In this document: positions 8,232-10,887 of the stretch, piece by piece
Position numbering within the stretch: position 1 is the stretch's first letter
Layout: the number at the start of each line of letters is the position of its first letter
Origin: a virus
Taxonomy: Duplodnaviria > Heunggongvirae > Uroviricota > Caudoviricetes
Length of the DNA: 20,586 bases
Strand: one strand, 5' to 3'
Virus record (IMG/VR): IMGVR_UViG_2563366976_000012
Span: 1 to 20,586 of that record
Made by a program: the position numbers and the translations under genes
The notes under the pieces: generated by a model
Told to the model about the DNA's origin: nothing
The model's database searches: none
Seen by the model: the letters and a program-made list of their open reading frames with translations, nothing else

Positions 8232-9173
8232 TCACCCCCTGAATCCTTCCGGGATCTGGCTGTAGTCCACGTTGTCGTAACTGGCTTTGAAGTACGGGTC
8301 TTCACGTTTTTCTGTGTGCGTGCTGACGGACGGCGATAAGCGCAGGGAAAGCTCATCCCATTTTTCCCGCAACTTCGACGGGCTGAGCACGTTACGGCAC
8401 CAGAACGGATCACGGCTGACGCGGCTGTACATCTCGCAGATTTGTTTGTGAGTACGACCATCCTGCACACACATCAGGCGAATTTCGTTTGCCCATGCTG
8501 TCCAGTTCGGTTCTTTGGGACGAACCACCTCGCCGTCACATTCGGCGGCCTGCTCGTACAGGGCGATGATTTTTTTCCAGAGCCACTGTGCGCAGGTCAA
8601 ATCATCCTGCGTTCCCCACTGGCGCTTTTTAGGGCTGAATACAACCGCATCAGGATGGCGAGTTAAAAAATCCTGTTCAGCCGTCTGCGTGTCCGGTTGC
8701 AAAGCGTCCGGACGAGAAGGTTTTTTATCTGACGGATCATGTTTTGATTTTACTGACGGATCCCCGCCAGATTCTGACGGGTGAAAACACGCTTTTTTGC
8801 CAGATTTCGACGCATCAAATTTTGACGGGTCAGATTTTGATGCGTCAGATTTTGACGGGTCAGAATCTGACAGTTGAGAAAATGCCGCAGCCTGAAGCTT
8901 CGCAACGTTAAGCTGATAAACATTCGACGCATTGCGGTTACCCTGGCGACGCGCCTTACGCGTTAACCAGCCTTCTGCTTCCAGCCGTGCGATAGCCGTT
9001 CTGACGGTACTCATCCCCGCGCCAATCTGGCGGGCAATGGTTTCAATTGATGGCCAGCACACACCCTCGTCATTACTGAAATCAGCCAGACGGGCCATAA
9101 TTGCCACACTGGATAATTTCATGCCTGACGCTGCGCAACCATCCCATACATAGCCGGTTAATTTGGTGCTCAC
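8232..9173 (-). CDS. Replication initiator-like protein (N-terminal HTH; internal iteron-encoded DPSKSDASKS repeats)
   Basis: 313 aa; GTG start with AAGGAGG 7 nt upstream and GTGA overlap with the Rha gene stop. N-terminal HTH (LSSVAIMARLADFSNDEGVCWPSIETIARQIGAGMSTVRTAIARLEAEGWL); the central low-complexity repeat coincides with DNA direct repeats. Confidence 0.6.
   Translation of the reverse strand: MSTKLTGYVWDGCAASGMKLSSVAIMARLADFSNDEGVCWPSIETIARQIGAGMSTVRTAIARLEAEGWLTRKARRQGNRNASNVYQLNVAKLQAAAFSQLSDSDPSKSDASKSDPSKFDASKSGKKACFHPSESGGDPSVKSKHDPSDKKPSRPDALQPDTQTAEQDFLTRHPDAVVFSPKKRQWGTQDDLTCAQWLWKKIIALYEQAAECDGEVVRPKEPNWTAWANEIRLMCVQDGRTHKQICEMYSRVSRDPFWCRNVLSPSKLREKWDELSLRLSPSVSTHTEKREDPYFKASYDNVDYSQIPEGFRG
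8726..8878. repeat. Iteron-like direct-repeat array (candidate replication origin) inside the initiator gene
   Basis: Eight copies of a TGACGG-type core (variants TGATGC, CGACGC, TGACAG); the last five are spaced exactly 15 bp apart (cores at 8808, 8823, 8838, 8853, 8868) with unit approximately cagattttgacgggt. Confidence 0.6.
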
Positions 9174-10051
9174 TTACGCACCTCCTTATGCTTTTCGTTC
9201 AGTTCCGAGTCCACCAGCCCGGCAACGAATACACCATCGTTGATGTAGTCGTAGAGCGATGAAGCCAGCGGAGACTGAACTGAAACCAGCATCGGATAAA
9301 GTTGTTCTAACCAAACGCGGTGAATTTCAGCCATGTAGAGGTAAACAACGTGGGCATTGTGCGCGACACATGAAGTATCAACCTTTCCGATCAGCGCCTG
9401 TTCCATCTGGTTAAAGGCATTGATGTATGCCTCTTTGAACCGGGCAGCACGTTTACCCGTGAAACCCATAGCAAGAAACGCAAAACCGTCTCGTGTGATT
9501 TGATAGCAAAGGAGCTTGCGTGTACCACCGTTCGGTTGATTTACCGAAATCGATGTCTCCGCAAAATTGCGGGCACAAAACTCAGGGGAACAATCCAGAG
9601 TGCGGATCTTTTTCAGCACATCGTCGTGACGCTTGGAGAAGAAGTTGGCAACAGCCAAAGAAGTGGTAACGGCCTGGCCGTTGTCAATGGTGATTTCAGG
9701 TTGAGTGAGGGCTGGGATCGTAGCCATGATGGCAGCCTCCGTTGACAGTGAAAAACTTCCACCACCGGAAACGCCAATTTCACTGGTGGTGAACTGGACG
9801 GGGTTGGCGTAACCGGCGTCAACGGAGACCGGCGCACCTTTCGGTGCCCCCGCCCAGCCCACCATAATCTGGATGTGAGCAAATGCGGACGATAAAAAAG
9901 ACGCTGGCGCGTCATACATCGCCGTTGACAATTTCAGGACGCCAATCCCGGCACCCGCTTTATAAGGTGCCTGAACAGTGTAACGTCCCGGAATTGCAGA
10001 ATCAATATGCTGGTGGCGATTGGTAAACAGTTTGAAAATATTCCGGATCAT
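9170..10051 (-). CDS. Rha-domain phage regulatory protein, paralogue 1 (unknown N-terminal domain)
   Basis: 293 aa; ATGA overlap with paralogue 2 and GGGGG SD. Central Rha signature ...CYQITRDGFAFLAMGFTGKRAARFKEAYINAFNQME. An internal GGAGG-N8-ATG (ATG at 9725-9727) lies just before the Rha domain. Confidence 0.6.
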   Translation of the reverse strand: MIRNIFKLFTNRHQHIDSAIPGRYTVQAPYKAGAGIGVLKLSTAMYDAPASFLSSAFAHIQIMVGWAGAPKGAPVSVDAGYANPVQFTTSEIGVSGGGSFSLSTEAAIMATIPALTQPEITIDNGQAVTTSLAVANFFSKRHDDVLKKIRTLDCSPEFCARNFAETSISVNQPNGGTRKLLCYQITRDGFAFLAMGFTGKRAARFKEAYINAFNQMEQALIGKVDTSCVAHNAHVVYLYMAEIHRVWLEQLYPMLVSVQSPLASSLYDYINDGVFVAGLVDSELNEKHKEVRK

Positions 10052-10887
10052 TTACGCCCCCTTACCTCTGAAGGATTCAGCGACAAATTTATGAGGCAGG
10101 CCAGCGCCGAAGCATCATTAATATAGTCATACAAGCTAACAGCCAGCGGAGATTCGGCTTTTGCCAACATAGGATAAAGCTGCTGCAGCCAGACCTGATG
10201 AATTGATGAAATGTAGGAATAGAGAACGCTGGCGTTATGTGCAACGTCGCTCAGTACAGAGGGATTTGAAAGCTGTTTCTCCATCTGGTTAAAGGCATTG
10301 ATGTATGCCTCTTTGAACCGGGCAGCACGTTTCCCCGTGAAGCCCATGGCAAGAAACGCAAAACCGTCGCGGGTGATTTGGTAACAAGGGAGTTTGCGGC
10401 CTGTGCAATCGGTGTAATCACTGGGCTGAAAATTCAGCTCAGTGAATTCAACAGAGCACTCAAGCGTCTGGATTTTTTGAATAACGTTTTTGTGCTGCTT
10501 GCAGAAATATTCGGCAACGGCCAAAGAAGAGGTAACAGCCTTCCCATGGATAACATCAATTTTAGGGTGAGTTTGGGTAGGGGTGGTTGCCATAGTGACA
10601 TCCTCATGTGCGAATTTTGAAAACTCACCACATGGGACGCCAATCACAGAGGTGGTGAGACGTACAGGGTTGGCGTAACCGGTCGCACATGACCCCGGCG
10701 CATCTTTCGATGCCCCTGCACGCCCCACCATAATTTGGATGTGAGGAAACGTGCGCAAAAAAACCGCTGAAGCGCGGTTATGCGCATGTGCGAATTTCAG
10801 GACGCCAATCCCGGCACCCGCTTTATAAGGTGCCTGAACAGTGTAACGTCCCGGAATGGCAGAATCAATCATTACTGGTTTGCTCAT
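10048..10887 (-). CDS. Rha-domain phage regulatory protein, paralogue 2
   Basis: 279 aa; same architecture. Tracts near-identical to paralogue 1 (10270-10380 vs 9400-9500; 10800-10870 vs 9930-10010) separated by diverged sequence. Internal GAGGA-N7-ATG at 10591-10593. Confidence 0.6.
   Translation of the reverse strand: MSKPVMIDSAIPGRYTVQAPYKAGAGIGVLKFAHAHNRASAVFLRTFPHIQIMVGRAGASKDAPGSCATGYANPVRLTTSVIGVPCGEFSKFAHEDVTMATTPTQTHPKIDVIHGKAVTSSLAVAEYFCKQHKNVIQKIQTLECSVEFTELNFQPSDYTDCTGRKLPCYQITRDGFAFLAMGFTGKRAARFKEAYINAFNQMEKQLSNPSVLSDVAHNASVLYSYISSIHQVWLQQLYPMLAKAESPLAVSLYDYINDASALACLINLSLNPSEVRGRK

Follow-up and report, generated by a model that had tools for sequence, protein, structure and literature searches.

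What the N-terminal thirds of two annotated phage regulatory proteins really encode is the question raised by a locus in IMG/VR virus record IMGVR_UViG_2563366976_000012, a tailed phage (Caudoviricetes) sequence analysed from position 1 to position 20,586 (20,586 nucleotides (nt), hereafter the window). Two open reading frames (ORFs) lie there in tandem on the minus strand, at 9170-10051 (293 amino acids, aa) and 10048-10887 (279 aa), joined by an ATGA overlap; the window is 100% identical to Escherichia coli 23CRST038 (NZ_AP045810.1), and in that genome PGAP labels both long ORFs "Rha family phage regulatory protein" (WP_001555119.1 and WP_001555120.1). Both carry the Pfam domain Phage_pRha, at aa 129-218 of the 293-aa and aa 119-204 of the 279-aa protein, and with a protein identity of 60% they are indeed, as the preliminary description of this DNA had it, tandem Rha-type paralogues with diverged specificity regions. 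The same description had left the region in front of the Rha domain as an unassigned protein domain. That region is instead the conceptual translation of two RNA genes, one for an IsrK-like small RNA (sRNA) and one for a c4-like antisense RNA; the true products of the locus are Rha proteins of 181 and 185 aa, and each annotated "gene" is very probably a self-contained immunity-type cassette like those of P1 immI, P4 and Gifsy-1. Cassette A denotes the 10048-10887 copy and cassette B the 9170-10051 copy, with a DNA identity of 66% over the cassette, and all their coordinates refer to the minus strand. The locus is largely an ordinary one that has been mis-annotated as long proteins.

The N-terminal third of each reading frame

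At the protein level, about 100-108 N-terminal residues of each long ORF (approximately aa 15-119) match Pfam PF10554 (Phage_ASH) with E-values of 1e-20 and 8e-15, the bit scores being 74.5 and 55.6 for a cut-off of 26. At the nucleotide level, both "N-terminal domains" are overlaid, on the same strand as the ORFs, by a match to the Rfam family isrK (RF01394, gathering score 50 bits) followed by a match to the family C4 (RF01695, gathering score 45 bits), the latter covering the full-length model (1-87) in both copies. A terminator scan places an intrinsic terminator at the close of each isrK match, inside both long ORFs. A further family, c4-a1b1 (RF03163), is matched weakly in the window, over the cassette A sRNA, at 21.6 bits and under its gathering score, and above that score in Gifsy-1. 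The annotated N-terminal parts, the RNA genes that underlie them and the effector genes that follow are these:

9728-10051, minus strand: annotated "N-terminal domain" of cassette B, composed of an 11-codon stub of a neighbour gene's start, the promoter and the isrK/c4 leader
10594-10887, minus strand: annotated "N-terminal domain" of cassette A, composed as in cassette B; the DUF4222 gene ends across its ATG
10757-10833, minus strand: IsrK-like sRNA of cassette A (RF01394, 62.3 bits)
9894-9970, minus strand: IsrK-like sRNA of cassette B (RF01394, 62.2 bits)
10648-10735, minus strand: c4-like antisense RNA of cassette A (RF01695, 75.1 bits)
9782-9869, minus strand: c4-like antisense RNA of cassette B (RF01695, 81.4 bits)
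10048-10593, minus strand: effector of cassette A, 181-aa Rha-family protein (Phage_pRha E 1e-32, aa 21-106)
9170-9727, minus strand: effector of cassette B, 185-aa Rha-family protein (Phage_pRha E 3e-27)

The Phage_pRha (PF09669) match in the short ORFs spans profile positions 1-91 of 91, and the same ORFs match PHROG families described as Rha-like and anti-repressor, so far as sequence goes marking the effectors as probable antirepressors or regulators. For the leader part as for the Rha part, sequence searches found no relative of solved structure. In a single-sequence AlphaFold model residues 1-120 come out as coil, with pLDDT values of 25-31; the model is poor throughout (mean pLDDT 34), and the unstructured N-terminus that it predicts is a weak indication.

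The Phage_ASH match does not make the leader a protein domain, and phage P4 offers the clearest view of what this family represents. The old "cI gene product" ORF of P4 (L126, 8168-8584), still annotated as a transcriptional repressor protein, matches Phage_ASH. This ORF overlaps a C4 match at 8420-8507 that corresponds to the CI RNA, and Phage_ASH can thus be read as the conceptual translation of isrK/seqA and c4/CI RNA genes. Unlike a true domain, it matches DNA that consists of RNA genes, that shows no codon periodicity and whose frame is not conserved outside one lineage. PHROG families 3960, 821, 995 and 6928 also take in translations of the leader.

The pattern of substitution distinguishes the leader from the Rha genes that it precedes. 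Between the two copies, differences fall on the three codon positions in the ratio 23/20/27 in the leader (omega 0.70) and 58/48/95 in the Rha ORFs (omega 0.23); across relatives, variable columns are distributed 38/41/45 in the leader (p=0.74) and 87/78/162 in the Rha genes (p=3e-9). The preliminary description, which favoured the long genes, had allowed that only the shorter Rha ORFs would be genuine if the N-terminal regions had no coding signature and were disrupted in relatives, and this is largely what is found: the leader lacks a coding signature, and its frame is interrupted in 37 of 119 relatives, the wider family having indels that are not multiples of three (non-3n) with the RNA fold kept. 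Moreover, one and the same type of cassette precedes genes of the Rha, Bro-N, ORF6N, P22 antirepressor and Icd-like types. As these effectors are unrelated, the cassette is a portable regulator and not a domain of Rha.

Pairing segments and the candidate regulatory circuit

Selection acting on the RNA is visible in the c4 loop and in the sequences complementary to it. A pattern scan of viral contigs returned 122 cassettes with 31 different sequences of the c4 loop (b'), and in nearly all 31 types the loop has its reverse complement at two fixed places, one upstream (b1), inside the IsrK-like RNA, and one downstream (b2), on or abutting the Shine-Dalgarno sequence (SD). Over the 31 loop types, the exact match to the loop averages 7.3 nt upstream and 8.5 nt downstream in a cassette's own flanks, against 3.6 nt and 3.5 nt in the flanks of other cassettes. 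The rule linking b1, b' and b2 also holds in about 15 cassettes of bacterial genomes, including Kluyvera, Serratia, Pectobacterium and Photobacterium; in that scan, made with an 18-base pattern, about 15 of 120 matches were genuine cassettes and the rest were mostly chance matches in GC-rich genomes. The fold is likewise maintained: among 30 loop-type representatives, both window copies included, compensatory double changes occur at 13 of the 27 pairs of the c4 stem-loop, with one cell broken. Matches to RNA families, covariation of the fold, covariation of b1, b' and b2, the missing coding signature and homology to P1, P4 and Gifsy-1 are the observations on which the cassette interpretation stands.

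In the window, the parts of each cassette follow one another in the same order:

10840-10868, minus strand: candidate promoter of cassette A, with -35 TTGATT at 10868-10863, a 17-nt spacer and -10 TACACT at 10845-10840
10809-10802, 10793-10785 and 10779-10757, minus strand: a1 (ATTGGCGT), b1 (TCGCACATG) and intrinsic terminator of the cassette A IsrK-like sRNA
10692-10683 and 10676-10670, minus strand: b' loop (TCATGTGCGA) and a' (ACGCCAA) of the cassette A c4-like RNA
10601-10644, minus strand: c4 targets of cassette A, with a2 (ATTGGCGT) at 10644-10637 and b2 (TCGCACATGA) at 10613-10604
9977-10005, minus strand: candidate promoter of cassette B, with -35 TTGATT at 10005-10000 and -10 TACACT at 9982-9977
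9946-9939, 9929-9922 and 9913-9894, minus strand: a1, b1 (GTCAACGG) and terminator of the cassette B IsrK-like sRNA
9827-9818 and 9810-9804, minus strand: b' loop (CTCCGTTGAC) and a' of the cassette B c4-like RNA
9735-9778, minus strand: c4 targets of cassette B, with a2 at 9778-9771 and b2 (GTCAACGGAGGC) at 9746-9735

The candidate promoters align hexamer for hexamer with the annotated P1 promoter P1c4/P51b and with the region upstream of isrK in Gifsy-1. The annotated ATGs sit 17 nt (cassette A) and 44 nt (cassette B) upstream of the -35 hexamers; transcripts starting from the candidate promoters therefore cannot encode the long proteins. No LexA box was seen at the cassette promoter on inspection by eye, no formal test having been made. 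In both cassettes a2 and b2 are exact complements of a' and b', with ACGCCAA of a' pairing with TTGGCGT. The b2 segment of cassette A overlaps the SD GAGGA (10605-10601) of the internal ATG at 10593-10591, and that of cassette B covers the SD GGAGG (9740-9736) of the internal ATG at 9727-9725. The strong internal SD and ATG to which the preliminary description had drawn attention are real, and they matter. An additional AUG, of the type that opens orf45 in Gifsy-1, is found in the 5' strand of the c4 fold at 10731-10729 (A) and 9865-9863 (B), in frame with Rha and 46 codons upstream of it.

The a sites are identical in the two cassettes (ACGCCAA for a', ATTGGCGT for a1 and a2) and the b sites differ. 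Loop-level duplexes between b' and b2 have computed energies of -16.6 kcal/mol (A) and -23.8 kcal/mol (B) for the cognate pairs, against -8.6 kcal/mol (A loop) and -5.4 kcal/mol (B loop) for the non-cognate ones; these values describe the loops only, RNAduplex energies between full-length c4 RNA and target being uninformative because they ignore intramolecular structure. By this comparison of sequences, the two cassettes share their a sites and have orthogonal b sites.

A regulatory circuit can be proposed from this arrangement. A sigma-70 promoter inside the annotated ORF would give a short IsrK-like RNA that carries the decoys a1 and b1 and ends at the intrinsic terminator, while transcripts reading past the terminator would yield the c4-like stem-loop RNA, with RNase P processing and repression in trans as expected of a P1 immI-type module. 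The a' and b' segments of this RNA would pair with a2 and b2, the sites immediately preceding the Rha gene, and, since b2 lies on the SD of the internal ATG, the c4 RNA should prevent the Rha-type protein from being translated. The IsrK-like RNA, holding the same target sequences, would turn translation on, either by titrating c4 or by refolding the leader. As the b sites of the two cassettes are unrelated, each c4 RNA should control its own gene only, and the two circuits would be orthogonal in vivo, as in the heteroimmunity of P1 and P7.

Two variants of the leader were met among other cassettes. One subclass (L014, L021, L044, L050, L062-L064, L085 and L087), which precedes Icd-like small ORFs, has 38 nt inserted after the IsrK terminator and before c4, and some copies hold a TATAAT-like hexamer, possibly a second promoter. 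In contigs L005, L024 and others similar to them, the ORF that begins at the c4 AUG exceeds 400 codons and runs in the +1 frame over the Icd-like gene into the next gene, an arrangement that recalls the icd/ant1 overlap of P1.

Possible translation across the leader and the origin of the tandem

Several observations weigh against treating the leader as an RNA gene pair and nothing else. The promoter hexamers fit the consensus at only 8 of 12 positions and a simple promoter scan of 9100-11300 called nothing, so the promoter assignment rests on the alignment with P1 and Gifsy-1; antirepressor activity of the Rha protein is drawn from family annotation only, and between b2 and the effector there is no icd-like ORF, the ATG after b2 opening the Rha ORF directly. 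In addition, the Rha frame is free of stops from the -35 hexamer to the ATG in 32 of 32 distinct leaders of the lambdoid class, whose length varies only by 3 nt, and frames +1 and +2 of these leaders show 11 polymorphic stop positions each. If stop-creating events were spread evenly over the three frames, the chance of such an outcome would be roughly (2/3)^22 = 1e-4, and mononucleotide shuffles leave the leader frame open in about 1% of trials. Every junction type further has an in-frame start upstream of the promoter, and several of these starts are ATGA-coupled to the preceding gene. Because the frame is kept open and such starts exist, "purely non-coding" is too strong a term and the leader is probably translated in some transcripts. 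It does not follow that the long ORFs are genes in their own right, made of an Ash domain fused to Rha with the internal ATG giving a short isoform. This is a highly improbable reading, even if Phage_ASH matches above the cut-off, the long forms annotated by PGAP, a leader frame that is open and stays open in lambdoid relatives, and upstream starts with SD-like sequences and ATGA coupling all speak for it. The leader shows no codon periodicity and an omega of about 0.7-1; residue changes in the hypervariable b1 and b' segments are radical and follow RNA complementarity, not protein similarity; the "domain" contains a candidate promoter and a terminator, those 37 of 119 relatives have a broken frame or non-3n indels in it, the same "domain" stands before unrelated effectors, and its P4 member overlaps the CI RNA gene. 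The missing solved-structure relative and the coil of the poor AlphaFold model point weakly the same way. The suggestion that each locus yields a long and a short isoform nevertheless stays alive in that the 32 lambdoid-class leaders are never broken. A use of the leader for two purposes is a further reading: its own promoter would deliver the regulatory RNAs, and transcripts from the upstream early promoter (through cro, the cII-like gene and DUF4222) would be translated in frame through the leader, ribosome transit melting the isrK terminators and the c4 fold and preventing Rho polarity, with the peptide itself irrelevant. This would allow expression of both Rha genes, and of the replication genes downstream of them, in lytic growth. 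We hold this to be a real possibility, if still a tentative one. It fits the absence of stops from the Rha frame when the other two frames together have 22 polymorphic stop positions, the length variation in multiples of three, the presence in all junction types of an in-frame start before the -35 hexamer, in many cases coupled by ATGA, the tight coupling of the operon in the window, and the lack of amino-acid constraint on the leader; in Gifsy-1, too, the AUG in the c4 strand is translated and needed for the downstream gene (PMC4825925). Taken together, the sequences suggest that ribosomes may cross the leader on some transcripts and that the peptide is free of constraint. However, the support is comparative throughout, and the lambdoid leaders are close relatives whose events are only partly independent. 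For the stretch upstream of the c4 AUG, the case for an open frame depends on no more than 8 polymorphic stop positions in frames +1 and +2, and an antitermination system could make the passage of ribosomes unnecessary. A further variant concerns the action of the c4-like RNA, which might work mainly as in P4, by premature termination of transcription upstream of the effector and replication genes, and not by blocking a ribosome-binding site (RBS). P4 shares the arrangement of isrK/seqA and C4/CI, the cassettes lie directly upstream of replication genes, and the authors of the Gifsy-1 study raise the possibility for STnc1160 (PMC4825925). We regard it as unlikely, since the overlap of b2 with the SD is seen in the two window cassettes and throughout nearly all of the 31 loop types, and the annotated target in P1 is translation; moreover, constitutive STnc1160 did not relieve the effect of IsrK in Gifsy-1 (PMC4825925).

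How two such cassettes came to lie side by side is the remaining part of the question. Alignment of the copies confirms near-identical tracts amid strong divergence, as reported at the outset: tract 1 (10870-10793 against 10007-9930, 78 bp) is 97-100% identical in 30-nt alignment windows, and tract 2 (about 10385-10279 against about 9507-9401, roughly 107 bp) is 90-100% identical, identity falling to 30-70% outside them.

10279-10385, with partner 9401-9507, minus strand: conserved tract 2, encoding the end of the Rha domain (CYQITRDGFAFLAMGFTGKRAARFKEAYINAFNQME), a family-wide mosaic junction

Local tandem duplication followed by divergence, with ongoing gene conversion keeping the tracts identical, was the explanation first put forward. 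The copies are adjacent and homologous over their full length, the two tracts are nearly identical, and synonymous divergence is lowered in tract 2. Duplication with conversion is nevertheless not needed, and very unlikely. Both tracts are kept as well across six loop-allele types in single-copy phages, with mean pairwise identities of 0.94-0.97 (promoter and IsrK 5' part) and 0.86-0.99 (end of the Rha domain), so that tract identity is not specific to the pair of the window; the rest of the cassettes has a synonymous divergence (dS) above 1.5, far older than the tandem. Each allele also occurs alone, cassette A in L081 and L009 at 97-99% identity and cassette B in L032 at 99.9%. In L032 the same prophage backbone runs collinear with the window on either side of its one cassette (compared with window 8152-16212), and its sequence equals the product of recombination between the two 78-bp tract-1 direct repeats (10870-10793 and 10007-9930); as this is exactly what such recombination would leave, the tandem is probably unstable. 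It is also rare: the cassette is present in 3276 of 5426 complete E. coli genomes, and at least 8 complete E. coli genomes have two adjacent Rha genes at this locus, a lower bound, the junction query having joined pieces of single-copy loci. One further sequence, L070, has the same tandem, 99.9% identical to window 9401-10869; the match stops at 9401, where tract 2 ends, and L070 continues with a different C-terminal module, exchanged exactly there, which suggests a mosaic recombination junction at a domain boundary. In L081 and L009 a 74-aa ORF comes after the single cassette, and its beginning is what makes up the first 11 codons of the 293-aa ORF (MIRNIFKLFTN, 10018-10051); the 293-aa ORF is therefore chimeric, a gene stub joined to an RNA leader. 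Judged from these sequence relationships, the pair very probably arose by recombination that joined two pre-existing alleles and not by local duplication and divergence.

Within tract 2, 30 nt at the end of the Rha domain (10284-10313 and 9405-9434, encoding ...EAYINAFNQME) are about 99% identical over the six allele types, with flanks at 50-70%; in this stretch even synonymous sites are therefore fixed. The point at which the L070 match breaks off lies just beyond it.

Prophage setting and relation to known systems

The pair sits in the early-right operon of a lambdoid prophage, with the DUF4222 gene and a cII-like gene upstream of it and the replication genes downstream. Coupling within the operon is tight, the DUF4222 stop lying over the ATG at 10887, an ATGA joining the two ORFs at 10048-10051 and a GTGA joining cassette B to the next gene at 9170-9173.

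8232-9173, minus strand: O-like replication gene downstream of the pair; its GTG overlaps the cassette B stop
10865-11056: DUF4222 gene upstream of the pair; its end and stop overlap the ATG at 10887
11854-12054: cro
12152-12778: CI-type repressor gene

Further along the operon, at 6700-8235 (by the L001 annotation), a PerC-family regulator occupies the usual place of the P/DnaC-type loader, and a small LexA-family protein and a Dam-type methylase are also present. Elsewhere in the window lie AsxR (1374-1426, plus strand), STnc100 (1430-1638, minus strand) and three tRNA genes (1717-1963, minus strand), which over 1374-1963 reproduce the Q-tRNA-stx flank known from Stx phages. In the genome identical to the window, however, a SASA-family esterase comes directly after this flank and no stx gene is found there. 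The prophage is thus one without stx that has the architecture of an stx site.

For annotation, the consequence is that the long "Rha family" RefSeq proteins of this locus and of several relatives have an N-terminal third that is really two RNA genes. As Phage_ASH and several PHROG families are likewise translations of RNA genes, "domain" analyses of such proteins would be misled. At the level of phage biology, alleles of antisense-RNA specificity (the b sites) can be stacked in one prophage, which could allow two separately gated antirepressors and bears on cross-talk between prophages and on induction in pathogenic E. coli. If the leader does serve both as RNA gene and as translated passage, two orthogonal cassettes in series would amount to two independently gated antirepressors per prophage, selection would act on the open frame and not on the peptide, and ribosome transit would erase two internal terminators together with c4 control. 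The openness of the frame, a modestly surprising comparative signal, offers a testable link between translation and RNA-based immunity.

The type of cassette itself is already established in three systems, namely c4-icd-ant of P1/P7, seqA-CI-seqC of P4 and IsrK-STnc1160-AnrP of Gifsy-1. With the immI region of P1/P7 (c4, icd, ant1/ant2), the window cassettes align end to end through candidate promoter, a1, b1, hairpin with U-run, c4, a2, b2 on the RBS and start codon; they have the c4 fold in common, and in both it is short complementary segments that carry specificity, so that different alleles should be heteroimmune. Unlike P1, the window has no icd ORF, its effector is a Rha-domain protein instead of P1 Ant, the leader continues in frame into the effector, and two tandem cassettes are found in a lambdoid early-right operon between cII-like and replication genes.

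Gifsy-1 isrK-orf45(STnc1160)-anrP is a direct homologue, in which the isrK and C4 matches recur in the same order and spacing, C4 lies inside "orf45", the AUG of the c4 5' strand (TTATGG) is conserved and an antirepressor-type gene follows. By comparison with the window, in which this AUG is in frame with the effector and 46 codons upstream, orf45 of Gifsy-1 ends on the anrP ATG (ATGA); its effector has an ORF6N domain in place of the Rha domain, and its single cassette is located downstream of Q, the window pair upstream of replication genes. Experiments in Gifsy-1 have demonstrated the IsrK RNA, a processed RNA of about 80 nt (STnc1160) and IsrK-dependent translation of the downstream antirepressor, as well as translation from the homologous AUG in the c4 5' strand, which the downstream gene requires (PMC4825925); Gifsy-1 is also the only system in which Hfq binding by IsrK and trans-activation of downstream translation have been demonstrated (PMC4825925). 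In lysogens, transcription of IsrK and STnc1160 is high (PMC7067206). The nucleotide sequence of orf45 is conserved and its peptide varies, and in S. dysenteriae orf45 and anrP are fused into a protein of 287 aa (PMC4825925, Hershko-Shalev et al. 2016). The relation of IsrK to P4 seqA had already been drawn by the authors of that study (PMC4825925). In P4 (seqA, CI RNA, seqC) the isrK, c4-a1b1 and C4 matches come in the same order as in the window; in contrast to the action proposed for the window, the CI RNA of P4 works by terminating transcription of the replication operon, and no antirepressor gene comes after it.

Among lambdoid phages, single cassettes are widespread in Stx1 and Stx2 phages, and the "immunity region" of Shigella phage SfV (orf37, an ORF of 279 aa) has a leader 92% identical to that of cassette B over 308 nt. 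SfV and the Stx phages have one cassette each, whereas the window has two with different b specificities. What is particular to the window is thus the placement of two cassettes in series, with shared a and orthogonal b sites, together with Rha effectors that follow b2 directly without icd, a leader in frame with them and a position upstream of the replication genes.

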